64,000 bases of DNA from Elusimicrobiota bacterium. GTDB lineage: Bacteria > Elusimicrobiota > Elusimicrobia > FEN-1173. Of the stretch, positions 7,301 to 60,886 are shown piece after piece. The stretch covers positions 4,290-68,289 of the forward strand of contig JBQTIM010000069.1 of assembly GCA_052388135.1 (NCBI GenBank), in the 5' to 3' direction. Within the stretch, counting starts at the first letter, position 1. Each line of letters opens with the position of its first letter. The notes beneath the pieces were generated by a model. It did no database searches and was not told the DNA's origin. It was given only the letters and a program-made list of their open reading frames with translations. Position numbers and translations under genes: made by a program.

Positions 7301-8419
7301 CGAAGACGAAAAGGACCGGGAGAAAATCAGGGTGTTCTGGGAGAAGGCCCGGGAGTTGCAGAAAGGATTTCAGGATATAGAACGGAGGGGCGCGCTGAAA
7401 GAGCAGCAGGGCGAGCTCTTAATGAAGCGATACCAAGAGTGGCAGTCCAATACCAACGCGTTGTCCAAGAGCGATCCCGATTACGAGGCCAAAAAGCGGA
7501 TGTTGGAGGAAGAGCTCCGAGCGATCGAGCGGGAAATCACCCGGCTGGAGCAGGAGGACAAGCGGCCGCGGATGCCGCCGCCCCCGTCTACATAGGGAAA
7601 CTTTCTTCCTGGCTGGAAAAACAGCGGTCCGGCGCCGCTCTCGCCCCCGGCTTGGCGGCGGAACTGCGGGCCATGAAAGGCCAAGGCCGCCACGCGGAAG
7701 TTTTCCAGCGCGTCATGGCCGACGTGGTGGAGGACACCGGCTTAAAAATCATGATCCCCGAGCCCGACGCCCGCGGCTTGGCCAACCTGGCCGCCGGCGC
7801 CGCGGCCAAACCCGAATGGATGAAGGCCAAGTCCGACCCGCAAACGCGCTACGTCCTCTGGGATGACGCCAAGGCCCGGCATGGCGAAGCCTATTTGAAA
7901 GAGCACGGCAGCCGGCCCGTGGAGGTGGAAGTGGAGGGCGGACGCCGGATCCAGGCCGCCTCCGATGCCTGGGGCCGCCCCTTGTCCAAGGACGTGGATC
8001 CCACCATGGTGGAAGGCGCGGGCGTCGTGTTCCGCGATCCCGCGAAGATGGGCTATTCCACCCGCATCGCCAACGAAGCCCTGCAATGGGCCAACGCCAA
8101 ACTGAAAGAGCTCGGCTACGGCGAGGTCTTTCCCCACGGCCCCGCCAATCAATTTTCCAGAGCCCAGTCGCTGGCATACCCTCAGATCGCCTACGAGTTG
8201 ACGCCCGAAGGCGCTCTCCGCCGCTACCGCATTTCCGACGAGCGGCAAGCCCAGGCTTTCTTCCACAAAGCCCGCCAGCCCGGCAGCCCCGCCTGGAATT
8301 GGCCCTCGGACCTGTCCGTCCACGCCCGCGAGGCCCTTCCGTCTATCCCCGCGGATTTCGAGAAGGCCGGCCGGCACACAGGCCGCACGTATCCTCCGCG
8401 GGCCGACGCAGGGAATTAG
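1316..8419 (+). CDS. giant uninterrupted ORF (2367 aa) encoding hypothetical protein(s) with no recognisable enzymatic motif. It is probably a composite: two internal stretches (about 4190–4640 and 7143–7595) code better in the +1 frame, the 4972–5177 repeat element sits in-frame, and 5200–5950 is low-GC.
   Basis: There is no stop codon in this frame for 7.1 kb. At the observed base composition about 2% of random codons would be stops, so a chance open frame is excluded. Third-position GC is high over most of the ORF (checked by eye at 1316–4100, 4640–4960 and 7600–8419). It drops to ~40–45% across 4190–4640 and 7150–7595, where the +1 frame shows the G1-A2-S3 coding periodicity. Confidence 0.5.
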   Translation: MAGTAKVFGRIASAVGNFFGRLFGRPAGVEAKPETIPAGVSPRESLSAPARTLTAEASRPVYADGRVYDQGRFSWDGEAWRLEGRGRALESGFNGIRAEDGGRLPVIVESSPQGIQAMGMDWEALEGRRLLVEKPTRLPGAGTVFAGSFDVKNGGFQFHEGSLYRSEGELHARFVTKQNGELAHFPARLEGDSFSLILTETKLSTGQTVAFAGSPLTGRIQDGRASLNAGPAAARVNLSDKFGRKAQGEVQVWLAEDGLKMRGLVSGQTSIPVSLVSGSPQAADSAAAGAAPSDLPAGRYRVMAEKAGHYFLEGEVAVAETGLAPFSVDTLFQMARGVGYRMGGVEFRQDDALPNQFFKLTRRVGIRAPEGGRMKDLSTGHETIFGPANEPLFFIKPDENGKKTVRSVQGQVLPAGVQTNARGEKELDVMLGPARLQVLLETQDDKTSYVSDSRWHAAGDTTAAHDGVNAAVGAMTFDVGRARKAAASLWNRAAEARAQGLSWKETADSLWQETKAGARQIWNEDMAGLRRTQRLAGLYLMRNGIGLFKAGVNFFGTKSIPYFQPVPVNLLRHVRLKGSSESVVDKAETFLGAVLHEADKKYVAARDQGNEEVGFYSLAERRGQFTAPQMLARGVGLGAEQLGQGFLTSFFGEALEEYRGMNLDEAVLKEINIGWGGMKELAKGAFTNSYKQAPTVVEATRQVTTSVGAIGLMAVVPGRGLARGYRAASRVTGIRRVASGLKTMAADSVLGAVDMVLPLPIGVDAGDMVRGVAGEYRAGRVRESLGLGTKDNIQVLTRDGRYVYLRVMGDDGASLPSLARLENLAQRAAEKNFVLDLEIAGGESVARQLEARPEYMAALSREGLARVGDYTNGLKSGAVNLRSAAVAEEMRFRSLSLKKETQFRLVDSELAAGRAREAKLKSLESQGNVRQTGAYLAEAKRNLSGWKRWKVGLAELRWRRAERSLQNLERRAQRIEGSLSDHARDGGHPQGAGVAPRTGLEGPGGARSAPSRAGQGLEGFEGTLRRGRAESAARERTSAARERTSAAREAAGAAKDTALRSLREEIQQVETRNGALEGQRSRLQDEIRIAHEGETSARGRAESLGREIKVYDGRLSWLQERARYLTEDPAGRRVYESALTLTPDFRGLSSARARRGAGDVSLDNFPLSPDAPHPHSAFQTVWKEFGRLAAAERGSFLIPERGILSALKDFLSSEKGQVPGAPPPALGDFSFARPKEKSPKGKDAPGGLRGLFWRRSDTPAPQRPIGAIGSDLPLRQTNPLRAPQGAPDVNDALPVDGFFARAMQSRHAEAFLKGEGNFAGRNAYITKASDLDGAETPIQIADRLKLTKKVGESIELSRDADTVIVFGYDTPTRAPPDLRVPTLEDGRSYPFTTGGAATGGGASQWLVGNGSVMDLQGKGFRVKEVYSVNESGVRLAWKTVANPDGTYSVTEKVLTPPKNSKATISSISFSKRFITSLSELFSSNAKTANSSGLMNRLESQTVPSTARSVRTKQDLSFQTFPWVHEAISAVSNAQGSGLVPFRSPLSSLKSFVARVFRKTAGEEGGPAVRSTGGADGLSLYLQGFSKELGEHRARSGGSSSSQSLSTVLEDFGRRLEDLTTSESAPARPRSDLTDPKSLELYLKGFASDIEKLTSDQQGKAMIPGDGPMDALNAYLARAFRKTDMGEGPAAPGLSASYLGQTQFPPSAAPSSRFDRSSNGFMTHKVPLQEGNLEVVLVPSKSAYSPLRSDAAPDAWDAPPVPGRDTSFRLEVKHGPDGDEIVLSRPGKGLASLEDAGIGRPVGPGRIRVQSRLEAFELIRKQESLSKNQLNGLLADLSRELEALAKNEEGKLGAGPDRSKPGLLNNESGRLSTDMLLAPVLAPWKAAKKIFWKSGEALERWLPETWRAAAAERRVGAQLDALVDFRLDLEKGGMGFEEIVSRYHEIAGSRLALDGGADGGALSGRLRGGSSPVEATGPRGGRISRWLAQLSEAIGARRRKGPGENQGVLGEGPGVAERISGYRTEGRAERAAGRALNEAIPRVAVQYQRVVQERSRLRGQKADVGGRAPSDRAGNHPAGAGGQAAADAAAPVYIGKLSSWLEKQRSGAALAPGLAAELRAMKGQGRHAEVFQRVMADVVEDTGLKIMIPEPDARGLANLAAGAAAKPEWMKAKSDPQTRYVLWDDAKARHGEAYLKEHGSRPVEVEVEGGRRIQAASDAWGRPLSKDVDPTMVEGAGVVFRDPAKMGYSTRIANEALQWANAKLKELGYGEVFPHGPANQFSRAQSLAYPQIAYELTPEGALRRYRISDERQAQAFFHKARQPGSPAWNWPSDLSVHAREALPSIPADFEKAGRHTGRTYPPRADAGN
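4113..4640 (+). CDS. nested +1-frame ORF encoding a K/E/Q/R-rich coiled-coil protein with an ARQEKEQ x3 tandem repeat and the C-terminal motif 'DSDPAYKTKYESLMKERQALEDELKALEGK'. It is either the C-terminal domain of an upstream protein reached by a +1 shift near ~4190, or an independent small gene (GTG start with GAGG 9 nt upstream).
   Basis: 175-aa ORF in the track. GC3 is ~72% in this frame against ~45% for the giant frame over the same bases. Codon position 1 is G-rich and position 2 is A-rich. It is paralogous to the C-terminus of the ORF at 7143–7595 (SDPxY…K(K/E)R..LE(E/D)EL(R/K)A(I/L)E). Confidence 0.45.
   Translation: MPIWRKLKEIFRGGSGGKSGSPSSGGVEPSEAYRILSDARKELKEAYQITQETAAIHRERELRLAQDLKDLEEQGQRQAELARDLKALREHFEEEGRKARQEKEQARQEKEQARQEKQQAQLKIQRYEALEKKYNKWKREMARLKDSDPAYKTKYESLMKERQALEDELKALEGK
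4407..4469 (+). repeat. 3 x 21-bp tandem repeat (gcgcggcaagagaaagaacaa), encoding (ARQEKEQ)3 in the +1-frame coiled-coil ORF
   Basis: Read directly; the third copy is degenerate. Confidence 0.7.
4972..5177. repeat. structured ~207-nt repeat element, copy 1, lying in-frame inside the giant ORF
   Basis: About 80% identical to 29924–30130. It has a 13-bp hairpin with conserved loop GCUYGUCC and two nested long-range helices, and each helix shows compensatory substitutions between the two copies. Confidence 0.6.
7143..7595 (+). CDS. nested +1-frame ORF encoding a coiled-coil protein ('…SKSDPDYEAKKRMLEEELRAIEREITRLEQEDKRPRMPPPPST'), a paralogue of the 4113–4640 product.
   Basis: Internal ATG at 7143 within track ORF 6909..7595. 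GC3 is ~78% in this frame, while the giant frame translates the same bases into G/R/A-rich low-complexity sequence. The ORF upstream of 7143 in this frame is R/W-rich junk. Confidence 0.45.
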   Translation: MKLLGADSLWTAERMAELYRDDYEAGLRRWRQLGRVAEEYHVGWLNYRKRLEREDEKDREKIRVFWEKARELQKGFQDIERRGALKEQQGELLMKRYQEWQSNTNALSKSDPDYEAKKRMLEEELRAIEREITRLEQEDKRPRMPPPPST

Positions 8420-10369: not shown

Positions 10370-11515
10370 ATGAAAAAATTCAAGCGAGTGATGGTCTTTC
10401 TAAGCTTAATCGCTCTTGCCTCAGGCCCATTGTTCGCCGGCGTGCCCAACCGTATCGTTTATCAGGGGCGGCTGACGAAATCGGGCGTGAGCGTAAGCGG
10501 GGCGCACACGTTCCGGGCCCGGCTCATTTCTGCCGGCGGCGCGGAAATATGGAACAGCGGGGATCTGGCGCTCACCCTGCCGCCCTCCGGAGACTTCACT
10601 CTGGTCCTCTCCCCGTCCGGCGTCAATTGGATCAACGATGACCCCAAACTCGAAATCTCCGTGGACGGCGACATCCTCAATCCCTCCGACACCTTCGCCG
10701 CCAGCCCCTACGCCATCGTCGCCTCGACTGCCCAATACGCCTTTGCCGCGGCCAACGCCGCCAGCGCGGATGCCGTGGCGAACGGAAGCGTCAACGACAA
10801 TTCCATAGCGGCGGGCGCCGGCATCGCCCTCTCCAAGCTGTCGCCGGGCGCGTTCCCGGCGGGAACCTATTCTTACGCCGGATCCAACGTGGCCTTCGGC
10901 GGCCCCGGCGTTTGGGATGCCGCCGGGAATCTGGGCATCGGGACGTCGTCCCCGGAAAAAAAGCTGGATGTGCGGGGCGAGGCGCGGAGCACCGTGGGTG
11001 GGGTGAATTTCCATATGGTTCCGGTGGGGACGGTCATCGCCTATGCGGGGGCCACGCCCCCCGCCGGCTGGTTGTTTTGCAACGGCCAGGCCGTGAGCCG
11101 AACCACATACGCGTCTCTATTCGGTGCCATCGGGACAATCTATGGGGCCGGCGACGGGTCCACAACATTCAATGTGCCGGATCTGCGGGGGCGCGTGGCC
11201 GTGGGGAAGGACGATATGGGCGGGGGAGCCGCCGGCCGCATGACCGCTTATATCAACGGTTCAAGCCTAGGCGCGAGCGGGGGAAGCCAATCCCATGCTT
11301 TGTCTGTTAGTCAGCTGCCCAGCGGTCCCGGAGGCCTGTATGGATTCGTCCGCAGATCTCTGCCGGGTGAGAATGTCACGGTATCGGCTGCCGATACTGT
11401 CGGTTCTGGCACCCAAATTGATATCGTTTCTACGAACTTAATAGGGGGAGACCAGGCCCACACCAACACCCAGCCCGGCCTTATTTTGAACTACATCATT
11501 TGCGCCGGGCAGTAG
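10370..11515 (+). CDS. secreted protein with a C-terminal phage tail-collar (T4 gp12-like / MdpB-type) domain
   Basis: Signal peptide 'MKKFKRVMVFLSLIALASGPLFA'. The C-terminal region 'IAYAGATPPAGWLFCNGQAVSRTTYASLFGAIGTIYGAGDGSTTFNVPDLRGRVAVG…QSHALSVSQLP…GGDQAHTNTQPGLILNYIICA' matches the collar-domain consensus as I recall it. A GAGGGA RBS lies 8 nt upstream of the ATG. Confidence 0.6.
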   Translation: MKKFKRVMVFLSLIALASGPLFAGVPNRIVYQGRLTKSGVSVSGAHTFRARLISAGGAEIWNSGDLALTLPPSGDFTLVLSPSGVNWINDDPKLEISVDGDILNPSDTFAASPYAIVASTAQYAFAAANAASADAVANGSVNDNSIAAGAGIALSKLSPGAFPAGTYSYAGSNVAFGGPGVWDAAGNLGIGTSSPEKKLDVRGEARSTVGGVNFHMVPVGTVIAYAGATPPAGWLFCNGQAVSRTTYASLFGAIGTIYGAGDGSTTFNVPDLRGRVAVGKDDMGGGAAGRMTAYINGSSLGASGGSQSHALSVSQLPSGPGGLYGFVRRSLPGENVTVSAADTVGSGTQIDIVSTNLIGGDQAHTNTQPGLILNYIICAGQ

Positions 11516-15745: not shown

Positions 15746-15826
15746 CGTCATGCCGGCGAAAGCCGGTATCCAGATGAATGGAAAGTTTCTATAAGCTGGA
15801 CCCCGGCTTTCGCCGGGGTGACGGTT
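15746..15826. repeat. dispersed hairpin repeat, a double module: cgtcaTgccggcgaaagccggTAtcc … ggaCCccggctttcgccggGGtgacg. GNRA-loop stems form a larger inverted structure in the iscU–mnmA spacer.
   Basis: Related modules occur at 30528–30560 and inside the 38551–38680 element. Confidence 0.5.
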
Positions 15827-23300: not shown

Positions 23301-23456
23301 AGCTGGGATTCCCCGGTTGGGCGCGAGAACCAAGACGGAAAAGACGGGCCTTTCTACGAAAAATGAGAGCGCAGCGGGGACTACGGCCGAACTTTTTTGT
23401 GAAGGAAAAAGGCCCGAATTTTTCGTCGAATTCGCGATCCAACCGGGGAGTCCAGG

Positions 23457-29923: not shown

Positions 29924-30130
29924 AGGGGCTCCACCCCTTCACCCGGCCATACTTTCTTTTTGCTTGTCCAAAAAGAAAGTATGGAGAAAGAAAAAGGACA
30001 CCCCGGTGGCCTGCGCGCGCCGTTTTCGCGGCGGCCCGACATTCCGGCCCCTCAACAGCCCATCGGGGCCATCAGGTCGGGCCTCCCGCTTCCGCGAAAA
30101 CGGCGTGCTCGAACCGCCACAGGGGCCCGA
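29924..30130. repeat. structured ~207-nt repeat element, copy 2, intergenic between rlmD and an AT-rich islet
   Basis: See copy 1. The P1 stem reads auacuuucuuuuu/aaaaagaaaguau here versus ugacuuuuccuuug/caaaggaaaaguca in copy 1. P2 reads cgccguuuucgcgg/ccgcgaaaacggcg versus ggcuguuuuggcgg/ccgccaaaacagcc. P3 reads ggcccgac/gucgggcc versus gguccgac/gucggacc. Confidence 0.6.
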
Positions 30131-30169
30131 AAGGCTTAGATTTGGACAATACAGCCGAATAATTCAAAA

Positions 30170-30553
30170 ATGAAAACTTTAAAAATAATCCTATTCCTTT
30201 TCATTCTCTTCGCAAGCGCATTCCTTGTTTTAGGATATGCCCTTACCCATGTGTTCATTGAAAAATATCCTTTATACATTTTTAGTGCTGTAGGCGCCTT
30301 TATGTCTGCTTTGGCTACTTCTTGTTTGGCTGTAATCGGATGGTTTGTAAGCAAAATTATAGGACGCTTTAATCGAGGATATGATGCTTTAGTTAAAAGC
30401 CAACCATTACAAAACGAATATCAATTAATGATTTCTGATAACGCGGCACTATTGGGAAAGTATGGCTGGGTCCAGGGGTGGAGCCCCTGGAAAACAAAAC
30501 TGAATTCTAAAACTTACTCCACCAGCTCTGGATACCGGCTTTCGCCGGTATGA
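30170..30553 (+). CDS. small hypothetical membrane protein (two TM helices) in an AT-rich (~38% GC) islet
   Basis: 127-aa ORF. Low-GC codon usage unlike the rest of the window. Its 3' end overlaps one arm of the dispersed hairpin element. Confidence 0.4.
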   Translation: MKTLKIILFLFILFASAFLVLGYALTHVFIEKYPLYIFSAVGAFMSALATSCLAVIGWFVSKIIGRFNRGYDALVKSQPLQNEYQLMISDNAALLGKYGWVQGWSPWKTKLNSKTYSTSSGYRLSPV

Positions 30554-30620
30554 CGGTCTATCGACCCGACAAAAAAGCGGTGAGATCCTTCGCGTTGCTC
30601 AGGATGACACGCAAATTTAA

Positions 30621-36151: not shown

Positions 36152-37237
36152 ATGGTTTCTCGTTCCCGGCCGCCCGCGTCCTTGCGCCCCCTGCTGGCCG
36201 TCACGCTGGGCGATCCCGCCGGAATCGGGCCCTGGACGGCGGCGGCCGCTGCCTTGGATCCCGGCCTGCGCCGCCTCTGCCGGCCGCTCCTGGTGGGCGA
36301 CGCCTGGGTCGCGCGGCGCTGCGGCGCCCGCGTTCTGCCCCTGGCCGATCCGGACGAATACATCGACCGCCCGGGCGTCCTCAACGTCCTCCACGCGCCG
36401 CATCCCCGCATACGGGAACTGGTCCCCGGCCGTCCGCAAAAAATCGGCGGGGAGTCCGCTTCTCTCTCCGTTCAAATCGCCGCTTCCCTGGCCATGCAGG
36501 GCCGCGTCGCCGCCGTGGTGACGGGTCCGGTCTCCAAAGAATCTTTCCGCCTGGCCGGCGTGCCCTTCCCTGGGCACACGGAGCTGCTCGCGGCCCTCTC
36601 CGGCGTTGCGCGGTCGGAAATGCTCATGGCGGCCGGGCGGCTCCTGGCCCTTCTCATCACGCGGCACGTTCCTTTGTCGGCCGTTCCCCGCCGGCTCACC
36701 GTGAAAGCGATTTCGGATTCGGTCCGTTCGGCCGACGCGTGGTTGAAACGAGCGCTCGGGACCGGACGTCGTCCCCAGTGGGCTTTGTGCGGGCTCAATC
36801 CCCACGCGGGGGACAACGGCCTTCTGGGCCGGGAGGAAATCAGCACGGTGGCGCCGGCCGCCGCGGCCTTGCGCAAGCTCGGAGTGGACATCGCCGGCCC
36901 GCTCCCCGCCGACGTGGCCTGGGGCAAACACGCCGCCGGCTCTTTCGACGCGGTGGCGTGCCTCTACCACGACCAGGGGATGATCCCGCTCAAGGCCTCC
37001 CGCGCCGGCCCCGTGGTCAACATCACCGCCGGCCTTCCTTGGACGCGCACGTCCCCGGGCCACGGCACCGCTTTCGATTTGGCCGCCGCCCCGCGCCCCG
37101 GCCGCCGCGCCGACCCCGCCGCCACCATCGCGGCCGCCCATTGGGCCTTGCGCGTCGCCGAAAATTTCCGTCCGCGGGGCGGAGCCGCGCGGCCGGGGCG
37201 TCCGCCAAGAGCGGCGGGAAAGCGAAGCGCCCGTTGA
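36152..37237 (+). CDS. pdxA: 4-hydroxythreonine-4-phosphate dehydrogenase
   Basis: 'AVTLGDPAGIGP', 'NPHAGDNG' and 'HGTAFDLA' are PdxA signature blocks. The track ORF begins with TTG at 36149; the ATG at 36152 was taken. The basic C-terminal tail is unusual. Confidence 0.8.
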   Translation: MVSRSRPPASLRPLLAVTLGDPAGIGPWTAAAAALDPGLRRLCRPLLVGDAWVARRCGARVLPLADPDEYIDRPGVLNVLHAPHPRIRELVPGRPQKIGGESASLSVQIAASLAMQGRVAAVVTGPVSKESFRLAGVPFPGHTELLAALSGVARSEMLMAAGRLLALLITRHVPLSAVPRRLTVKAISDSVRSADAWLKRALGTGRRPQWALCGLNPHAGDNGLLGREEISTVAPAAAALRKLGVDIAGPLPADVAWGKHAAGSFDAVACLYHDQGMIPLKASRAGPVVNITAGLPWTRTSPGHGTAFDLAAAPRPGRRADPAATIAAAHWALRVAENFRPRGGAARPGRPPRAAGKRSAR

Positions 37238-37400
37238 GAGCGGACCGATCTTCGGCCGCGGCGGCCGCCGGTCGGGCGAAAGCCCCAGCCCGGAAATTTC
37301 CGGAGCCGGCGCCCTCCGGACGCCGTCCGATAACACGAACCCCGTCTTTGAACCCCGCGGTCGAAGTTCGCGGGGGAAAAAATCCGAGGGAGGGCCAGGG

Positions 37401-38480
37401 ATGAAAAGATTTCCAAGGCCGGTCGCGGCGCGCCGCCCGCCCGCCAACGCGTCCGGCTTCCGCCGGCTTCTGCTCTGCGCTTTGTTCTCTTCGCCCTGGC
37501 CGGCGGCCGCGGAGCTGGACCACCGCTCGCGCTGGAGCGTGGGCATCGAGGCGGGCCGGGCGTTCCCCGTTTCTCCGTCCGAATTTTCCCAGCCCAACGA
37601 TTCGGGGCCCGGTTACGGCGCGCGCCTGCGCCAGGACCTGACGGAGCGCTGGTCTGCGGCGGCGGTGTTTTCCAGCCAGAGCTTCCGCCGCAAGGAGCAG
37701 GCGTCCCAGAAGACCGTCACCCAGCCCCTGATGTTCATGGGTTTCCTTTCCCTGGCGCGGACGGCGTCCTGGAACCCCTACCTGGCGGGCGGCCTGGGTT
37801 TCAGCCGCAACCAGCGCACGGTTTTTTCCGTGCGGCACCACTGGACCAAGCTCACCGGCGCCCTGGGCGCGGGCGTGGAGTACACCTTGAGCCCGGTGGT
37901 TTCCGTCGGCGTGGAGGGGCTGTACCGCTATTTCCCGCGGCCGTCCATCGCCGAGAAGGCTTTCCAGACGGCCACGGCCTCGGCCCTCATCAACTTCTAC
38001 ATTCCGGATTCCTGGATTCCCGACCGGCCCCGCCGGCCGCTGGTCATTCGGGAGGCGCCGCCGGCGATTCCCGAGCCTCCCGCCCCCACGCCCCAGGAGC
38101 AGGCCCAGGCCGAGCTGAACCGGGTGCAGGAGGACATGTTCTCCAAAAAGATTTCGTCCATCCGCTTCGAGACCGGGCAGGCCGTTTTGCTGGAGTCGTC
38201 CTACGAAACGCTGGACATCGTGGGAACCATCTTGCGGCGGTATCCCGAGCTCGGCGTGCGCGTGGTGGGGCACACCGACGAGGTGGGCGGCGACATGGAC
38301 AACAAGGCCCTGTCCGCCGCGCGGGCCGAGGCGGTGCGGCAGTACCTCGTTGAAAACTTCTCCCTGCCGGCCGAAAAGATCGCCACCGCCGGCATGGGCG
38401 AAACGCAGCCCGTGGCCGACAACACGACGGAGGAAGGCAAGGCCATGAACCGGCGGGTGGAGTTCCTCATCATCAAGTAA
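37401..38480 (+). CDS. OmpA-family outer-membrane protein (N-terminal beta-barrel-like region, C-terminal OmpA/MotB peptidoglycan-binding domain)
   Basis: Signal peptide. C-terminal 'VVGHTDEVGGDMDNKALSAARAEAVRQYL…NRRVEFLI'. Confidence 0.8.
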   Translation: MKRFPRPVAARRPPANASGFRRLLLCALFSSPWPAAAELDHRSRWSVGIEAGRAFPVSPSEFSQPNDSGPGYGARLRQDLTERWSAAAVFSSQSFRRKEQASQKTVTQPLMFMGFLSLARTASWNPYLAGGLGFSRNQRTVFSVRHHWTKLTGALGAGVEYTLSPVVSVGVEGLYRYFPRPSIAEKAFQTATASALINFYIPDSWIPDRPRRPLVIREAPPAIPEPPAPTPQEQAQAELNRVQEDMFSKKISSIRFETGQAVLLESSYETLDIVGTILRRYPELGVRVVGHTDEVGGDMDNKALSAARAEAVRQYLVENFSLPAEKIATAGMGETQPVADNTTEEGKAMNRRVEFLIIK

Positions 38481-38550
38481 AAGGGGAAAGCCGGGAGAGG
38501 GGCCGCCCGGCCGTCGTTCCGGAGAAGTTTCCGCTGCGGCGGCTAAAACC

Positions 38551-38680
38551 AATGCGGTTCAATTAATGTGTGTCACCCCGGCGAAAGCCGGGGCCCAGGC
38601 AGTAAAACTGGTTTTTAAGCAACTATTTAACGCCCTGGATACCGGCTTCCGCCGGTAAGACGGCTTAATTGAACTGCATT
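38551..38680. mobile_element. MITE-like element with imperfect terminal inverted repeats (aatgcggttcaattaa / ttaattgaactgcatt), two GNRA-loop hairpin modules inside, and a 12-bp direct repeat gcggctaaaacc on both flanks (38539–38550 and 38681–38692)
   Basis: Inverted and direct repeats read directly from the sequence. The internal modules match the hairpin repeats at 15746–15826 and 30528–30560. Confidence 0.5.
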
Positions 38681-38684
38681 GCGG

Positions 38685-40301
38685 CTAAAACCCCTGTTCG
38701 GAGGCGATGGTGACGACGGTGCGGCTCTCGCCCCGCACGGGTTTCAAGGCGTACGCCACGTCGGCGCGCAGGACGTTGCCGACGCTGGAGCGCGTGATGT
38801 GGAACCTCAGGCCGGCCCCGACGTTCATCTTCAGGTTGCGCAAATCGATTTTCTTCCCGGGCTCCCAAACGTTCCCCGCGTCGAAAAACGCGGCCGAACC
38901 CAGTCCCAGCACGCGCCAGAGGTCGGGCACGAGGAAGAGCCGGTGCTCCAGATTGGCCAGGAGCAGTTTGTTGCCCGACAGCTGGTTGAGCTGGTAGCCC
39001 CGCAGGCCGGAATCGCCGCCCAGAAGTATCTGGGAGTCGGGCGCGGGATGGAGGATGTGCTCGGCTTGAAAGTGCAGGGCCAGCGTCTGGCGGGGGGAAT
39101 AGTGGTGGTAGTATTCCCAATCGAGGCGGGGCGTGGTGTCGCGCCAGGCGCCGTCCTCGTAGCGCCCCTGGCCCCGGAAGGTGGCCAGCCAAAAGTGAGA
39201 GGGGCCCAGCCGTCGCCCCGCGAAGGATTCCAGGCTTAAAAAGCCGGCGCGGCGCGAGCCCGCCGCCCAGGGTCCGGAAAATCCCGGCGTCGCCTGCAGG
39301 GACGGCCCGAGGTTGAAATCCTCCTCGCGGTCGTACAGCTTGATGTTCTCAACGGAAAGAAAGTCGACTTTTTCCGCGTGGACGCTGGCCTCGGCCACGG
39401 CGTAGCGCCGGCCCTCGGCCGCGTTGCCGGCGGCGCCGGAGGTGAGCCGCTCCTCCAGGTAGCGGCCGCCCAGCCCTCCGCGGCGTATGCGGCTGGGCGT
39501 GGAGCCGAAGGAAAGCGCGCCGCCGGCCGCCACGGAGCGCACCCGCTCGTTGAACTTGAACGCCTCCACGCCGTCCTTATAAACCCGGTTCACGCGATCC
39601 TCGTCCTGGCCCGACGCCGAGACGGACCAGTGCGTCACCGACGAGAAAAAGGGCCGCGCCAGGGTGAGGTTGCGGCCGCGGCCGTTGTCGCCCTCGGCGT
39701 AGTCCGCGTTCAGCCGCAGGCGCGTGCCCCCGAGGTTCGGGTCCCCGTAGGACAAGGACCGCCGCGCCCCGCCCATCTCCTCGCGGTAGATGTAGCTCAC
39801 CTGCTTGCCGTAGCCCAGGAAATTCTTTTCGCGGATGCCGATCTTGCCGTGGATGTCGTCGCCCACGGTCTCGAAGCTGAGGATGGGCTCCGTGGTCCAA
39901 GTCTCCTGCACGCGCACTTCCAGGTCGACCTCGTCGTCGTCCACGGGCACGGCCCGCACTTTCACCCGCCGCAGGCGCAGAATGCGCCGCAGGGCCCGCT
40001 CCGATTCCCGGGCCAGCCGGGGATCGTAGGCCTCCCCTTCCTGCATAAGGAGCTCGTTCTTGATCACCCGCTCCTTGGTGGAAAAATGGAGGGCGTTGAT
40101 GACGCGGTAGGGCGTCTTGTTTTCCTTCTTGAGCTTGGTGTTGAAAATGTCCGTGCGGAGGATGCGGATGTGGCGGATGCGCTTGCCCTGGGGCCGCCAC
40201 TTTTTGGACCAGGCGTCGGCGGGCAGCAGGAAGGGCCAAAGCAGCAGCAGGCAAAAGGCGAGGGCCCGGCGGGGGAGGCGCGGGCGCGGGCGGGATGTCA
40301 T
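38685..40301 (-). CDS. Omp85-family outer-membrane protein (BamA/TamA-like: POTRA plus C-terminal beta-barrel)
   Basis: Signal peptide. 538 aa with the C-terminal aromatic end '…IASEQGF', and a barrel-like alternating pattern in the C-terminal two-thirds. Confidence 0.7.
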   Translation of the reverse strand: MTSRPRPRLPRRALAFCLLLLWPFLLPADAWSKKWRPQGKRIRHIRILRTDIFNTKLKKENKTPYRVINALHFSTKERVIKNELLMQEGEAYDPRLARESERALRRILRLRRVKVRAVPVDDDEVDLEVRVQETWTTEPILSFETVGDDIHGKIGIREKNFLGYGKQVSYIYREEMGGARRSLSYGDPNLGGTRLRLNADYAEGDNGRGRNLTLARPFFSSVTHWSVSASGQDEDRVNRVYKDGVEAFKFNERVRSVAAGGALSFGSTPSRIRRGGLGGRYLEERLTSGAAGNAAEGRRYAVAEASVHAEKVDFLSVENIKLYDREEDFNLGPSLQATPGFSGPWAAGSRRAGFLSLESFAGRRLGPSHFWLATFRGQGRYEDGAWRDTTPRLDWEYYHHYSPRQTLALHFQAEHILHPAPDSQILLGGDSGLRGYQLNQLSGNKLLLANLEHRLFLVPDLWRVLGLGSAAFFDAGNVWEPGKKIDLRNLKMNVGAGLRFHITRSSVGNVLRADVAYALKPVRGESRTVVTIASEQGF

Positions 40302-40611
40302 TTCTCCCCATTATACCGCTTGCGGTGGCCCTTGCCAAACGGCCCGCTTTGCGATAAAATCTTACCTCGCTGTAAATCCGCACACTTTCCGATTCCGCCC
40401 GGGGTCCCCGGTCAACGCCGGGGCCGGCCCTCCGTCAAGGAGGACCGCGGGAGGCGACGAGAGTGGAGGCCGCGCCGATGCCGGCGCGGAAAAAAACCGA
40501 ACGAGCGCACCGGCTCCGCGAGAAAAGCGGAAGCCCGACCGTGTTCTGTTTACAGCGGACGCCTACGCGGCGGCCGCTTTTTTTTATGAGCCCGGTGCCC
40601 AAGGAGACGAG

Positions 40612-41388
40612 ATGGCTACGATATCCATGAAAGCTTTGCTGGAAGCCGGGGTCCACTTCGGCCACCAGACGCGGCGTTGGAACCCGAAGATGGCCAAATA
40701 CATTTTCGGCAGCCGCAACAACATCCACATCATAGACCTGCAGAAGACCGTCAAGGAGCTGAAAAAGGCCTTGGCCTACGTGAAGGAGCTGGCGGTCTCC
40801 GGCGAGACCCTCCTCTTCGTCGGAACGAAGAAGCAGGCGCGCGAGGCCGTGGCCCAGGAAGCCCAGCGCTGCAACATGCCCTACATCCGCGACCGCTGGC
40901 TGGGCGGCACCCTCACCAACTTCGAGACCGTGCGCCGCTCCGCCCGCCGCCTGGGCGAGCTGGACCGCATGAAGCAGAGCGGCATCTTCGCCTCCCTTTC
41001 CAAAAAGGAGGCCATGCGCCGGGAGAAGGACATCAAGCGGCTGTCCAAGTCCTTGGACGGCATCAAGACCATGGAGAGCCTGCCCTCGGCCGTGTTCATC
41101 GTGGACCCGGTTCAGGAGATGACGGCCATTTTGGAGGCCCGCCGCATGGAGATCCCCATCGTGGGCATCTGCGACACCAACTGCGACCCCGACCTCATCG
41201 ACTACCCCATCCCCGGCAACGACGACGCCATCCGGGCCGTGCGGTTCTTCTGCAAGATCATCGCCGACACGGTGCTGGAGGGCGTGCAGGCGGCCCAGAA
41301 GGCCGCCGCGGCCGAGACGCCGGCGGAAGAACCCGCCGTCCAGGCTCCCGAGCCCGTGGCGACGCCCGCCGACGTCACCGCCGGTTAA
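40612..41388 (+). CDS. rpsB: 30S ribosomal protein S2
   Basis: 'LLEAGVHFGHQTRRWNPKM' is the canonical S2 N-terminus. AAGGAG RBS. The track ORF is 5'-extended. Confidence 0.95.
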   Translation: MATISMKALLEAGVHFGHQTRRWNPKMAKYIFGSRNNIHIIDLQKTVKELKKALAYVKELAVSGETLLFVGTKKQAREAVAQEAQRCNMPYIRDRWLGGTLTNFETVRRSARRLGELDRMKQSGIFASLSKKEAMRREKDIKRLSKSLDGIKTMESLPSAVFIVDPVQEMTAILEARRMEIPIVGICDTNCDPDLIDYPIPGNDDAIRAVRFFCKIIADTVLEGVQAAQKAAAAETPAEEPAVQAPEPVATPADVTAG

Positions 41389-41398
41389 GGGGCGCGTT

Positions 41399-42274
41399 AT
41401 GGCCGACATTTCTCCCGAACTCGTCCGCAAGCTCCGCGAAACCACCGGCGCGGGCATGATGGACTGCAAGCGCGCCCTGGAGGCCTCGAGCGGAGATTTC
41501 GACAAGGCCGTGAAGGTCTTGCGCGAAAAGGGCGCCGCCTCCGCCGCCAAGCGGGCCGGCCGCGCCACCGCCGCGGGCTGGGTGGCCTCGTGGATAGACC
41601 CCGCCGGAAAATCCGCCGTTCTTCTGGAGCTCAACTGCGAAACGGATTTCGTGGCCCGCACCGACGACTTCAAGGCCCTGGTGCAGGACCTGGTGCAGAA
41701 AGCCGGCACGGCCGCGCCGGAATGGTCCGGCCCCGCCGACGCGCCGCAGGACCGCCTCCGCGACCTGGCCGCCAAGCTGGGCGAGAACGTCTCCCTGCGC
41801 CGCTTCCAGCGCTACGGGTCCAACGGAGGCTCCGTCCTCCACTCTTCCTACATCCACCCCTCGGGCGGTTTGGGCTCGGTGGGCGTCCTCATCGAGCTGG
41901 CCGCCGACAAGGCCGAGGCCCTGCAATCCGCGGAGGCCAAGGCCCTCGCCAAGGATCTCGCCATGCAAGTGGCCGCCTCCAGCCCCCGCTGGGTGAGCCG
42001 GGAAGAAATCCCCGCCGACGTTTTGGAGCAGGAAAAATCCATCGCCCGCGAGCAGGCCCGGCGCGACAACAAGCCCGAAGCCATCTGGGACAAAATCGTC
42101 CAAGGCAAGGTCCAGCAGTTTTGCCGCCAGTTCTGCCTCCTGGAGCAGCCCTTCGTCAAGGACGAAAGCCAGAAAATGTCCGTGGGGCAGGTGGTGGAGC
42201 AGGTGTCCAAAAAAGTGGGCGCCGCCCTGGCCCCGAAGCGGTTCGTGCGCTACCGGGTGGGGGAGGAAGAATAG
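41399..42274 (+). CDS. tsf: elongation factor Ts
   Basis: 'LVRKLRETTGAGMMDCKRAL' UBA-like N-terminus. It follows rpsB. Confidence 0.9.
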   Translation: MADISPELVRKLRETTGAGMMDCKRALEASSGDFDKAVKVLREKGAASAAKRAGRATAAGWVASWIDPAGKSAVLLELNCETDFVARTDDFKALVQDLVQKAGTAAPEWSGPADAPQDRLRDLAAKLGENVSLRRFQRYGSNGGSVLHSSYIHPSGGLGSVGVLIELAADKAEALQSAEAKALAKDLAMQVAASSPRWVSREEIPADVLEQEKSIAREQARRDNKPEAIWDKIVQGKVQQFCRQFCLLEQPFVKDESQKMSVGQVVEQVSKKVGAALAPKRFVRYRVGEEE

Positions 42275-42283
42275 GGATGAACG

Positions 42284-42315
42284 GCGTGAATGGTGAATCG
42301 TGAACAGTGAATCGA
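42284..42315. repeat. GTGAAT-type heptamer repeat array (ggcgtgaatggtgaatcgtgaacagtgaatcg) in the tsf–pyrH spacer; a single arm
   Basis: Read from the sequence. Related inverted pairs lie at 43739–43844 and 60772–60871. Confidence 0.5.
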
Positions 42316-43113
42316 AACGTCCACGGCACGACCATCCATGTTAAACCGCCCCCATCCGCCGTTCGCTCTGCGCGATCCGCGCCTCGGCTCGTGAGCGCGC
42401 GCCGCGTCGTCCTCAAGCTGTCGGGCGAGGCCCTGGCCGGGGACGGCCGCTCGGGCATAGACCTGAAGTCTCTTTTCGAGATCGCCAAGGAATTGAAATC
42501 CGCCCGCGGCGCCGACCATCAAATCGCCGTGGTGGTGGGCGGCGGCAACATTTGGCGCGGCGCCCGCGGCCAGGGGCTGGAGCTGGACCGCACCATTTCC
42601 GACAACATGGGCATGCTGGCCACCCTGGTCAACGCCCTGGCCCTGCAGGACGCCCTGGAGCAGCTGGGCGTGCGCACCCGCGTTCTCTCGGCGCTGGAAA
42701 TCGCCAAGGTGGCCGAACCCTACATCCGGCGGCGCGCCATCCGCCATTTGGAAAAGGGCCGCGTGGTGATCTTCGCCGCCGGCACCGGCAGCCCCTATTT
42801 CTCCACGGACACCGCGGCGGCCCTGCGCGCCTCGGAGATCGAGGCCCACGTCATTTTAAAGGCCACCCAGGTGGACGGCGTCTACGATTCCGACCCGCGC
42901 AAAAACGCCAAGGCCAGGCGCTACACGGAGCTGTCCCACGGCGAGGCCTTGAGGAAGCGGCTGGGCGTCATGGACGCCACGGCCCTTTCCCTCTGCATGG
43001 AGAACCGCATCCCCATCCGCGTGTTCAACATGCACGCGCCGGGCAACATCCGCCGCGCCATCGCCGGCGGGAAGATCGGAACGCTGATCAAGCCGGACGA
43101 CAAGCAAGGGTAA
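42307..43113 (+). CDS. pyrH: UMP kinase. The true start is more likely the GTG at 42391, giving [15 protein letters not shown].
   Basis: '[12 protein letters not shown]' and '[11 protein letters not shown]'. Its 5' end overlaps a GTGAAT-repeat element. Confidence 0.85.
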
Positions 43114-43152
43114 CGCGCGCCGCGCGCCCTTAAGACGAGGAGAAGACTCTCT

Positions 43153-43728
43153 ATGATCTCCAGCCAGCCTCAAGTGCAAACCATCCTTCAGCAGGCGGAA
43201 GAGAAAATGAAAAAGGCCCTGGACGGCCTACGCCAGGAGTTTTCGGGCCTGCGCACGGGCCGCGCCTCGGCGGCCCTCCTGGACAACATCCGCGTGGAGA
43301 GCTACGGGTCCCACGTCCCCTTGAAGCAGGTGGCGGCGGTGGGCGTGCCGGACGGGCGGACGCTGGAGATCCGGCCCTGGGATGCGGGCACCCTGTCCGC
43401 CATCGAGAAGGCCATCCAGGCGTCGGACCTGGGCCTCACGCCGGCCAACGACGGCAAGATCATCCGCCTCTCCATCCCGTCCATGACCGAGGACCGGCGC
43501 CGCGACATGGCCCGCGTGGTCAAAAAGATCGCCGAGGATTTCCGCGTCTCCATCCGCAACGACCGCCGCGAGGCCATGGAGAAGATCAAGAAAGCCGAGA
43601 AGGACAAAGTCCTTTCCGAGGACCAGCGCAAGACCGCCGAGGAGGCCCTCCAGAAGCAGACGGACCTCTACGTGAAGAAGGTGGACGAAGCCGCCGCGGC
43701 CAAGGAAAAAGAATTGATGGAAGTTTGA
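43153..43728 (+). CDS. frr: ribosome recycling factor
   Basis: 191 aa with an RRF-like helical bundle pattern. 'LLDNIRVESYGSHVPLKQVAAV'. Confidence 0.9.
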   Translation: MISSQPQVQTILQQAEEKMKKALDGLRQEFSGLRTGRASAALLDNIRVESYGSHVPLKQVAAVGVPDGRTLEIRPWDAGTLSAIEKAIQASDLGLTPANDGKIIRLSIPSMTEDRRRDMARVVKKIAEDFRVSIRNDRREAMEKIKKAEKDKVLSEDQRKTAEEALQKQTDLYVKKVDEAAAAKEKELMEV

Positions 43729-43738
43729 GGGAGAAGAA

Positions 43739-43844
43739 CGGCGTGAATTGTGAACAGTGAATGGTGAATAGAAAAATCAAAACATCGGCTTGGCTCCGGC
43801 TTTTGGACTTTCCCGTTCACTATTCACGATTCACCATTCACGCC
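43739..43844. repeat. inverted pair of GTGAAT-type heptamer arrays (about 32 nt each) separated by ~42 nt, in the frr–uppS spacer
   Basis: Arm 1 is ggcgtgaattgtgaacagtgaatggtgaatag. Arm 2 is cgttcactattcacgattcaccattcacgcc, whose reverse complement is ggcgtgaatggtgaatcgtgaatagtgaacg. Confidence 0.55.
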
Positions 43845-43861
43845 TTCGCTCCGCGCCTTCC

Positions 43862-44611
43862 ATGAGCCGCGCCGCCGCGCCGGCGCCCGCCGCCTCCAAA
43901 GACGACGATCTCCTCCGCCGCATCGACCGCAACCGGCTGCCGCGGCACATCGCCGTCATCATGGACGGCAACGGCCGCTGGGCCAAGAAGAAGGGCTGGC
44001 CGAGGCTTCTGGGGCACAAGGCCGGCGCCGAGAGCGTGCGGGAGGCCGTGCGCGTCTGCGGCGAGCTGGGCGTGGAGGCGCTGACCCTCTACGCGTTCTC
44101 CACGGAAAATTGGCTGAGGCCCGCCGCCGAGGTGAAGGGCCTCATGAGCCTCCTGGTGCGCACCCTGCGGCGGGAGACGGCGGAACTGGACAAGAACAAC
44201 GTGCGCCTGCGCGCCATCGGCCGCCTGGCGGCCCTGCCGGCGGAGGTGCGGGCCGAGCTGAACCGCGCCGCGGGGGCGCTGAAGGGCAACTCGGGCCTGA
44301 TCCTCAACCTGGCCCTCAACTACGGCGGCCGCCAGGAAATCGTGGATTCCGTTCAGGCGCTTCTGGCCGCCGGCGCCAAGACGGTGGACGAGGCGGCCAT
44401 CAGCCGACATCTCTACACCGCCGGCCTGCCGGACCCGGACCTGCTCATCCGCACGTCGGGCGAGCGCCGGCTTTCCAATTTTCTCCTCTGGCAGTCGGCC
44501 TACGCCGAGATCTACATTTCGCCCGTTCTCTGGCCGGATTTCCGCCGCCGGCACATCTACGAAGCCGTGCTGGACTACCAGTCCCGCGAGCGCCGGTTCG
44601 GCGGACTCTAA
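43862..44611 (+). CDS. uppS: undecaprenyl diphosphate synthase (cis-prenyltransferase)
   Basis: 'HIAVIMDGNGRWA' and 'LTLYAFSTENWLRP'. The 5' part of the track ORF overlaps a repeat element. Confidence 0.9.
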   Translation: MSRAAAPAPAASKDDDLLRRIDRNRLPRHIAVIMDGNGRWAKKKGWPRLLGHKAGAESVREAVRVCGELGVEALTLYAFSTENWLRPAAEVKGLMSLLVRTLRRETAELDKNNVRLRAIGRLAALPAEVRAELNRAAGALKGNSGLILNLALNYGGRQEIVDSVQALLAAGAKTVDEAAISRHLYTAGLPDPDLLIRTSGERRLSNFLLWQSAYAEIYISPVLWPDFRRRHIYEAVLDYQSRERRFGGL

Positions 44612-44760
44612 AGGCAATGATGTGTGAAGGCAATGATGAAGGATGAATTAAGAATGATGAAAAAAACCGAATGGGCGCCGCTGAATTATGAACGGTAAAT
44701 TTATGAGAAAAACAGCCCGCCTGTTTTCATCCTTCATCCTTCATCATTCATCATTCTAAA
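44596..44760. repeat. inverted pair of ATGAAGGATGA-type short repeats in the uppS–cdsA spacer
   Basis: '…gaaggcaatgatgaaggatgaattaagaatgatgaaaaaaac…' pairs with '…gttttcatccttcatccttcatcattcatcattc…'. Confidence 0.45.
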
Positions 44761-44761
44761 T

Positions 44762-45610
44762 ATGGTGCTCCCCCGCCTTCTCACCGCGCTGGCCGCGGCG
44801 CCTATTTTTCTTTGGGTCCTTCATCTGGGCGGGCCGCCTTTCGCGGTCTTCATGTTCTTTCTCGTCTTGCTGGCGGCCTGGGAGTTCCACCTCATGGCGG
44901 AGGAAGGCGGCTACGCCGGCCAATCGTGGTGGGGCGTGGCGGCCGCCGGCCTGGTGGCCCTCGCCCTGATTTTTCCGGGCCTGCGGCCGGACATGGCTCT
45001 GCCGCGGCAGGCGCCCGCCCTGGCGGTGGCGTCGGCGATTTTCGTTCTCTTCGCGCGCGAGCTGGCGCGGGGGGACAAGAGCCTTTCCATGCTGAGGCTG
45101 GGCACGTCGTTGAGCGGACTGTTCCTCGTGGCTTGGCCGCTGGGCCATCTGATCTTGCTGAGGGACCTGCGGGGGCCGGGAGATCTTTTCCAGGTGGGGC
45201 GGGGAGCGGCGTTCTTCCTGGTGCTGTTGATCTGGGCCCAGGACGTGGCGGCCTGGGCGGCGGGCCGCGCCCTGGGGCGGCATCGCCTGGCGCCGCAGGT
45301 GAGCCCGGGCAAGACCTGGGAAGGCGGCGCGGCGGGCCTGGCGGCGGCGGTCCTGGCGGGCCTGGCGGCGCGCGAGTTTTTTCTGGCGGGAGCGTTCTCG
45401 CGGGGCGAGGCGGCGGCCCTGGCGGCGGTCTTGGGCGTGCTGGCCCAGTTTTCAGATTTGGCCGAATCCCTGATGAAGCGCTGTTTCGGCGTCAAGGATT
45501 CCTCCCAGCTCCTGCCCGGCCACGGCGGCGTTCTGGACCGTTTCGACTCGTTCCTTTTCTCGGCCCCTTTCCTTTATTTTTATTTGATCATCACCGGCCG
45601 GGCGGGATAG
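44762..45610 (+). CDS. cdsA: phosphatidate cytidylyltransferase
   Basis: 'SPGKTWEG' and 'GHGGVLDRFDS'. Confidence 0.85.
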   Translation: MVLPRLLTALAAAPIFLWVLHLGGPPFAVFMFFLVLLAAWEFHLMAEEGGYAGQSWWGVAAAGLVALALIFPGLRPDMALPRQAPALAVASAIFVLFARELARGDKSLSMLRLGTSLSGLFLVAWPLGHLILLRDLRGPGDLFQVGRGAAFFLVLLIWAQDVAAWAAGRALGRHRLAPQVSPGKTWEGGAAGLAAAVLAGLAAREFFLAGAFSRGEAAALAAVLGVLAQFSDLAESLMKRCFGVKDSSQLLPGHGGVLDRFDSFLFSAPFLYFYLIITGRAG

Positions 45611-60011: not shown

Positions 60012-60075
60012 CGAATCCCCCGGTCGGATCGCGGGATTCGACGTAAAATCCGGGGCTTTTTCCTTCACGAAAAAG
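60012..60075 (+). terminator. tandem hairpins after the OMP gene: cgaatccc…gggattcg, then gcttttt…aaaaagc
   Basis: Inverted repeats read from the sequence. The T-tract is weak (only 'cttttt'). Confidence 0.3.
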
Positions 60076-60180
60076 CTCGACCGTAGTCCGGGTTACGCTC
60101 TCACTTTTTCGTTTCGTAAAAAACCCCCGTCTTTTCCGTCTCGGTCCTCGCGCCCGACCGGGGAACCCGGGTAACCGCTC

Positions 60181-60792: not shown

Positions 60793-60871
60793 CGGTGAAT
60801 AGGAAGAACCAAAGCATGCGAACAGTTGCTTTCGCCGTTCCCCTTCACCATTCACGATTCACCATTCACGC
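60772..60871. repeat. inverted pair of GTGAAT-type heptamer arrays in the rimP–nusA spacer. Arm 1 overlaps the last rimP codons.
   Basis: Arm 1 is ggcgtgaacagcgaatcgtgacggtgaatagg. Arm 2 is ccccttcaccattcacgattcaccattcacgcc. Confidence 0.55.
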
Positions 60872-60886
60872 CGTTTAAAGGAAATT

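Follow-up and report, generated by a model that had tools for sequence, protein, structure and literature searches.

Analysis of a 64,000-nucleotide stretch of DNA from an Elusimicrobiota bacterium (GenBank assembly GCA_052388135.1, contig JBQTIM010000069.1, positions 4,290 to 68,289 of the forward strand; hereafter the window, to which all coordinates refer) revealed a real and recent insertion of mobile DNA at 38539-38692, in the spacer between two convergent genes of the OmpA and Omp85 families, for which the filled and the empty site are both in hand. The inserted element is very probably a non-autonomous MITE (a miniature transposable element with inverted repeats) of 130-132 bp, bounded by ends of 16-17 bp of the type found in the IS4 subgroup of the IS4 family of insertion sequences (IS), with an inverted doublet resembling repetitive extragenic palindromic (REP) sequences as its whole interior. 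A first-pass annotation of the window had proposed the insertion of a non-autonomous, MITE-like transposon at this place, a reading which is supported by the empty site together with the inverted and direct repeats.

The insertion and its empty site

Re-reading of 38539-38692 gave the same layout as that annotation (Table 1), with, in order, gcggctaaaacc, aatgcggttcaattaa, tgtgt, GTCACCCCGGCGAAAGCCGGGGCCCAG and an AT-rich spacer of 33-36 nt, followed in the right half by CTGGATACCGGCTTCCGCCGGTAAGAC, ggc, ttaattgaactgcatt and gcggctaaaacc. The inverted repeat AATGCGGTTCAATTAA (38551-38566) and the reverse complement of its partner, AATGCAGTTCAATTAA (38665-38680), differ by the one mismatch previously described, and these 16-mers are the sole matches to each other in the window even when 3 mismatches are allowed (0.25 matches expected by chance). 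The 12-mer GCGGCTAAAACC is present exactly twice in the window, at 38539-38550 and 38681-38692, and so on both flanks as had been noted, and these direct repeats adjoin the inverted repeats with no gap. Since c38550 and g38681 are complementary, the borders can be read in two ways, either as a 17-bp inverted repeat with a 10-bp duplication or as a 16-bp inverted repeat with a 12-bp duplication. When the window was scanned for inverted repeats (14 nt or longer, no more than one mismatch, span no greater than 500 nt) bordered without a gap by direct repeats of 8 nt or longer, this layout was detected at one site only, and it was detected in none of 100 Markov-1 random sequences.

Table 1. Positions of the parts of the inserted element, its flanking genes and related REP-like modules in the window.
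Feature	Position	Strand	Remarks
OmpA-family gene (OMP beta-barrel and OmpA domain)	37401-38480	+	Pfam OmpA and OMP_b-brl; convergent with the Omp85 gene
Left copy of the target-site duplication, CGGCTAAAAC	38540-38549		Full direct repeat GCGGCTAAAACC at 38539-38550; the copy generated by the insertion, distal to the Omp85 gene
Left terminal inverted repeat, CAATGCGGTTCAATTAA	38550-38566	+	IS4-subgroup type; first base may belong to the duplication
REP-like hairpin module, type B, GTCACCCCGGCGAAAGCCGGGGCCCAG	38572-38598	+	GAAA loop
AT-rich spacer (loop) between the inverted REP-like modules	38599-38634		
REP-like hairpin module, type A, GTCTTACCGGCGGAAGCCGGTATCCAG on the minus strand	38635-38661	-	Loop GGAA on the minus strand, UUCC on the plus strand
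Right terminal inverted repeat, CAATGCAGTTCAATTAA on the minus strand	38665-38681	-	Matches the end of an IS4-family element on a plasmid
Right copy of the target-site duplication, CGGCTAAAAC	38682-38691		Full repeat at 38681-38692; includes the Omp85 stop codon
BamA/TamA (Omp85) family gene	38685-40301	-	Pfam Omp85; element begins 3-4 bp past the stop codon
REP-like doublet lacking IS4-type ends	15747-15822	type A +, type B -	Flanked by nifU-like and mnmA genes; outside the element, a reference for its cargo
Single REP-like module of the same family, lacking IS4-type ends	30528-30554	-	

Regarding the flanking genes, the earlier assignment to the OmpA and Omp85 families is backed by Pfam in both cases, and a protein on record for a metagenome-assembled genome of Elusimicrobiota, NCBI MGQ0644419.1, shows 100% identity to the Omp85 protein. 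The minus-strand Omp85 gene ends with a stop codon (cta at 38685-38687; the protein ends ...SEQGF*) that lies inside the right-hand 12-mer, in agreement with the first-pass annotation; this copy covers the stop codon and the last codons and leaves the reading frame unchanged. The duplication regenerates the stop codon and the protein is therefore the same as before. The insertion alters neither gene product, and any effect would fall on the 3' ends of the transcripts.

The empty site was found among metagenomes of the Joint Genome Institute (JGI), in which a member (P0124) of the 90% protein cluster of the window's Omp85 protein is 97% identical to it. The two contigs encoding it, L361 (sample 3300072688) and L362 (sample 3300072972), are collinear with window positions 37225-45199 at about 95.7% nucleotide identity. 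The BLAST alignment to these contigs splits at window positions 38550/38681, the two pieces overlapping by 12 nt in the relative, and in a multiple alignment both contigs carry a single GCGGCTAAAACC and one clean 142-bp gap, equal to the element plus one copy of the repeat. The convergent spacer of the relative is 61 bp long and reads ...ttccgctgcg GCGGCTAAAACC cctgttcgg..., the ends and the doublet both being missing from it, and the C-terminus of the Omp85 protein (...TIASEQGF) is identical whether or not the insertion is present. An empty-site comparison had been proposed in the first-pass annotation as a check, and what the two contigs lack is exactly the element and one repeat copy. The 12-mer, of which the empty site has a single copy, is therefore target DNA, and the suggestion made at that time that it may belong to the element itself is not borne out. 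The insertion is a strain-level marker. The close relative also differs from the window by larger indels, as seen at a further locus (L363) compared with window positions 8338-8379 and 10732-11423: about 1.5 kb in or near a giant gene and about 0.2 kb near a Collar-domain gene, with 94-97% identity elsewhere.

In more distant relatives, of which the Omp85 proteins are 53-58% identical to that of the window, the order SurA-PdxA-OmpA / Omp85 is kept, the convergent spacers measure 4-20 bp and no element is present. These loci bear on the view that the hairpin is an old, structured stretch of intergenic DNA, for instance a bidirectional terminator, in which the repeats arose by chance or by local duplication. 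A very stable hairpin between convergent genes would suit such a structure, but it is missing from the 95.7% identical relative and from all the more distant syntenic loci, the layout was not reached by chance in the random sequences, and the region has no match in Rfam. The first-pass annotation had named, as pointing to such an origin, an orthologous locus that shares the sequence together with both 12-mers; no such locus was found, and the opposite is seen in L361 and L362. This explanation, refuted by the empty site, can practically be dismissed.

IS4 likeness of the ends

In the survey of the IS4 family by De Palmenaer et al. 2008 (PMC2266710, Table 1), the IS4 subgroup is defined by a length of 1400-1650 bp, ends of the form -AATR--------WTW---- and flanking direct repeats of 10-13 bp. 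The ends of the element, CAATGCGGTTCAATTAATGT and CAATGCAGTTCAATTAAGCC, fit this signature at every specified position. For comparison, IS4-family elements were located in a plasmid collection using the IS4 transposase and their ends were read directly. Of 19 positions, up to 17 in the end sequence CAATGCRGTTCAATTAA agree with real IS4-family ends, a number reached by the right end of the element against the right end of an IS4-family element on the E. coli plasmid NZ_CP062888, in the same register from the tip. The ends and duplications compared were those of IS4 of E. coli K-12 (TAATGCCGATCAGTTAAGG, 12 bp), the E. coli plasmid element (CAATGCCGTTCACTTAAGC, 11 bp), IS4-family elements of Burkholderia (TAATGCCGTTCAGTTAAGG, 12 bp) and Ralstonia (TAATGCCGTTCAGTTAAGC, 12 bp), and two IS4-family elements of Streptomyces (CAATGCCGTTG..., 10 bp). 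The ends of the plasmid, Burkholderia, Ralstonia and Streptomyces elements take the form (T/C)AATGCCGTTCA.TTAAG or CAATGCCGTTG, with duplications of 10-12 bp, and the duplications of all six real elements, measured in the same way as for the element described here, fall in the range of 10-12 bp. The elements matched in this comparison are from Proteobacteria and Actinomycetota, with no partner from Elusimicrobiota found among them. Ends of the IS231 type were tried and rejected, position 3 of that signature not being fitted, and none of the signatures of IS231, IS10, IS50, ISPepr1, IS701 and ISH3 is fitted by the ends of the element.

Because the ends fit the IS4 subgroup and the empty site has one 12-mer, the repeat of 10-12 bp is read as an IS4-family target duplication. 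A duplication of 12 bp had been considered long for most IS families, an objection that loses its force here since the ends fit a subgroup for which 10-13 bp is the norm (PMC2266710).

Regarding coding capacity, all six frames of the element are short or stop-ridden, and no homologue of the IS4 transposase was detected with InsG (tblastn) in the window or in the fetched metagenome loci; the element is therefore non-autonomous and, in structure, a MITE. As it contains no open reading frame (ORF) for a transposase (DDE, YREK motif), it is not itself an IS and is at most a non-autonomous derivative of one. In the mechanism proposed here, an IS4-family DDE transposase supplied in trans from a gene outside the window would recognise both ends, and movement would be of the cut-and-paste kind, by analogy with Tn5 and Tn10, the studied relatives of the IS4 family. 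The target was G-CGGCTAAAAC-C, spanning the Omp85/BamA-like stop codon, and 10-12 bp of it were duplicated; the spacer between the convergent genes grew from about 62 to 204 bp. Repair of cuts staggered by roughly one helical turn would yield a duplication of this length. Duplications in the IS4 family correspond to one helical turn (PMC2266710). The element itself may be a member of a multi-copy set, and its insertion implies that an IS4-family transposase is active, or was until recently, in this uncultured Elusimicrobiota lineage.

Several results weigh against this reading. No cognate transposase was found in the window or the fetched loci, nor did the ends recur elsewhere in the window or across roughly 29 kb from the close relative, and the single copy leaves the ends placed at either 130 bp (12-bp duplication) or 132 bp (10-bp duplication). 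The junction between end and REP-like module had 0 matches in JGI metagenome contigs, and a search of six-frame peptides against a collection of 5.8 billion proteins returned REP-coded peptides only, none with end-coded words. In representative genomes, only single chance or coding-sequence matches to the 16-mer were present among the 119 matches listed, either from unrelated AT-rich taxa or within conserved coding sequence, lepA of Bacilli being an example, while in viral contigs all 102 matches to the 16-mer were single and attributable to chance. The far weaker signature of IS4Sa (CA------T, duplication 8-10 bp) is fitted by the ends as well, and the IS4 assignment draws on about 17 bp of end and the length of the duplication.

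The presence of one copy only in the data examined would equally be expected of a full-length IS4-family element that had lost its transposase gene by internal deletion and persists as a dead, one-off remnant, of which the ends and the duplication would look alike. Such a decayed IS is decidedly improbable, since its interior would be leftover IS sequence and the 98-bp interior found is exactly the resident REP-like doublet; the element contains no transposase fragment, the window contains no IS4 homologue, and insertion, near-total deletion and gain of the doublet would all have to be accommodated within the short divergence from the empty-site relative.

The REP-like interior and other repeats

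The 98 bp between the ends are made up nearly entirely of two inverted copies of a 27-nt hairpin module, GTCAYNCCGGCGRAAGCCGGNRYCCAG, and merely 1-5 nt separate the ends from the doublet. The first-pass annotation had described two GNRA hairpin modules in the interior; two modules are indeed present, but they form an inverted doublet and not two GNRA loops on one strand, since the second loop is GGAA on the minus strand and UUCC on the plus strand. Folding of the whole element gives a single long hairpin, at -73 kcal/mol for the plus strand and -78 kcal/mol for the minus strand, the z-scores lying around -5 to -6. On the Omp85 strand this hairpin is followed by GUUUUAG from the duplicated target, on account of which the hairpin, situated in the 3' region of both convergent transcripts, might conceivably act as a terminator or a 3' stabiliser. 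A simple terminator scan does not flag the element. No match in Rfam was obtained for the element at E<1 except a spurious microRNA, none was obtained at gathering thresholds across the window, and no tRNA genes were found in the window. For genome annotation, the element serves as a warning that the long hairpin past the bamA-like gene is mobile DNA and not a conserved regulatory structure.

Five REP-like modules are present in the window, as two doublets and a singlet (Table 1). The doublet at 15747-15822 is kept at the same site in the close relative and is therefore older than their split, in contrast to the element at 38550, which is not shared. With both the ends and the doublet missing from the empty site, and the stand-alone doublet having stayed in place, the element appears to have moved as one piece.

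The existence of a stand-alone doublet in the window is what would be expected if the element had instead been assembled in two steps, a bare end-to-end element of IS4 type having inserted first and a REP doublet having then been placed between its ends by another enzyme, in the manner of REPINs (hairpin-forming REP doublets), so that the composite never moved as a whole. The spacing of 1-5 nt between ends and doublet can be read in the same way, as can the presence of metagenomic doublets within several unrelated inverted-repeat shells, which could reflect doublets targeting the centres of palindromes. Such nesting is nevertheless improbable, as two separate insertions would have had to strike the same site after divergence from the 95.7% identical relative, in which that site is wholly empty, and over this period the sole comparable stand-alone doublet has not moved. 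It also requires an IS4 element of about 40 bp made solely of ends, and elements of this kind are not known for IS4.

An origin of the whole palindrome as a long-armed REPIN, for whose movement a REP-associated tyrosine transposase (RAYT) would be responsible, was likewise considered, given that the interior is a REP-like inverted doublet and that a single long hairpin is the form in which REPINs have been described (PMC3116915, PMC3337134). The empty site proves that 10-12 bp of target DNA were duplicated, which largely refutes this origin; the outer arms match IS4-family ends, and the other REP modules in the window lack these arms. IS200/IS605-type enzymes, RAYTs among them, insert without target duplication, and a RAYT-type insertion is therefore ruled out for this event. 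No homologue was detected with E. coli RayT (tblastn) in the window or in the fetched metagenome loci, a test of low sensitivity. Taken together, a long-armed REPIN is very improbable, and the non-autonomous MITE with IS4-type ends remains the preferred reading.

Regarding the spread of the module, a scan of metagenome contigs for the exact 27-nt pattern detected at least 120 stretches, from contigs of 39-70% G+C, many of them doublets (loci L226-L345). A literature search on the repeat sequences and their peptide readings gave nothing relevant, and no paper describing the 27-nt module was found. In the metagenomes the module GTCAYNCCGGCGRAAGCCGGNRYCCAG usually forms inverted doublets with 15-45 nt between the modules, for example in L231 (10748-10816), L248 (238-305) and L294 (13117-13185), and one same-strand array of four was observed in L256 (8864-9309); in one frame it reads V(I/M/T)PAKAG(I/V)Q. 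The same contigs contain an abundant MITE family of about 135-160 bp with the ends TGATGNNCTCGTAAAAAGTC ... GACTTTTTACGAGNNCATCA and target duplications of 4 bp (including aagt, aatt, aatc, atgt, aaca, actt and ctct), present in L231 (10719-10852), L248 (208-342), L262 (5945-6079), L283 (3057-3191), L294 (13080-13214), L318, L319, L333, L339 and others. The interior of this family is modular, often a REP-like doublet and elsewhere other palindromic modules such as GTCATTGCGAG...CTCGCAATGAC, and adjacent copies occur. Further shells round the REP-like doublet are GAGACCTTTGAATTTCT (L306, L312) and GGGGYATAAGCGCTAAC (L226).

The doublet is thus seen in a shell of IS4 type with a duplication of 10-12 bp, in a shell with TGATG...CTCGTAAAAAGTC ends and 4-bp duplications in other lineages, and in at least two further inverted-repeat shells. 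It is possible, as a tentative suggestion, that the doublet (GTCAYNCCGGCGRAAGCCGGNRYCCAG and its inverted copy) is a portable palindromic cargo which has been packaged between the ends of unrelated families of DDE transposons. Its recurrence as cargo of different transposon families is put forward as a lead and not as a finding. If it were so, REP-type palindromes would have a general means of acquiring new mobility or, equally, new MITE families could arise round pre-existing palindromes, and the very wide spread of the module in environmental bacteria would be partly explained. The presence of the same doublet within unrelated shells offers a modest, testable lead on the formation of MITE families and the spread of REP palindromes.

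Other repeats were also observed in the window. A second palindromic repeat family, built of GTGAAYN heptads (AACGGCGTGAATGGTGAATCGTGAACAGTGAAT), has four arms, at 42280-42328, 43737-43768, 43804-43844 and 60827-60875, including an inverted pair about 35 nt apart at 43737-43844. An intergenic repeat of about 140 nt is present in two copies (5000-5140 and 29946-30090), with 84% identity across 104 nt; in it an AT-rich hairpin, cttttcctttg...caaaggaaaag, precedes the GC-rich conserved sequence ggcccctcaacRgcccatcggggccatc. Having no match in Rfam, it may represent either a further repeat element or an RNA of no assigned class. About 500 bp of DNA lie between the arms (29924-29956 and 30456-30488) of an inverted repeat of 33 nt with 91% complementarity. 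This DNA is markedly AT-rich at 30160-30455, where a 127-aa ORF with a hydrophobic N-terminus is located (30170-30553), and a REP-like singlet follows directly after; against a genomic G+C content of 65%, the segment (29924-30488) has the look of foreign or mobile DNA. Two copies of a repeat of about 130 nt, with 85-88% identity, are found on opposite strands at 23306-23431 and 60036-60168 (inverted), with no tRNA or Rfam match, and at 4405-4482 there are three tandem copies of the 21-nt unit AAGCGCGGCAAGAGAAAGAAC, which on in-frame translation would give a lysine/arginine-rich repeat.

Comparison with known systems

Compared with the IS4 subgroup (PMC2266710), the element has the NAATG at positions 1-5 and the TTA at positions 14-16 of its ends in common, and its duplication of 10-12 bp lies within the 10-13 bp of the subgroup, but it is 130-132 bp long and not 1400-1650 bp, has no transposase gene and carries a REP-like doublet as its interior. 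Its host, an uncultured Elusimicrobiota bacterium, also sets it apart from the IS4-family elements with which it was compared.

The interior resembles REPINs (PMC3116915, PMC3337134) in comprising two palindromic modules of about 27 nt, inverted with a short spacer and repeated intergenically. Unlike REPINs, the element made a target duplication of 10-12 bp and has ends of IS4 type, and no RAYT gene was seen in the window or the fetched loci, by what is a weak test. Enterobacterial and pseudomonad REPs typically start with GTAG, in contrast to the modules of the element, which start with GTCA.

With the metagenomic MITE family bounded by TGATGNNCTCGTAAAAAGTC the element shares short inverted repeats enclosing the same REP-like doublet and a similar size (about 135-160 bp in that family), while it differs in its unrelated ends, in its duplication of 10-12 bp as against 4 bp and in being found as one copy, where the family is present in many. 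The unrelated ends and the different lengths of the duplications imply different transposase families for the two.

A further parallel is offered by the MIC231 elements, the IS231-derived mobile insertion cassettes of Bacillus cereus. These cassettes are mobilised in trans. Like them, the element is non-autonomous, with IS4-family ends and a duplication of about 10-12 bp (PMC2266710, Table 1). The cassettes are cited in the same survey. MIC231 differs in having ends of the IS231 subgroup (CAT-------AA--TAA), which the element misfits at position 3, and in being much larger and carrying passenger genes, whereas the element carries a palindromic repeat only. The element thus adds to the known non-autonomous derivatives of the IS4 family, of which the MIC231 cassettes are an example.

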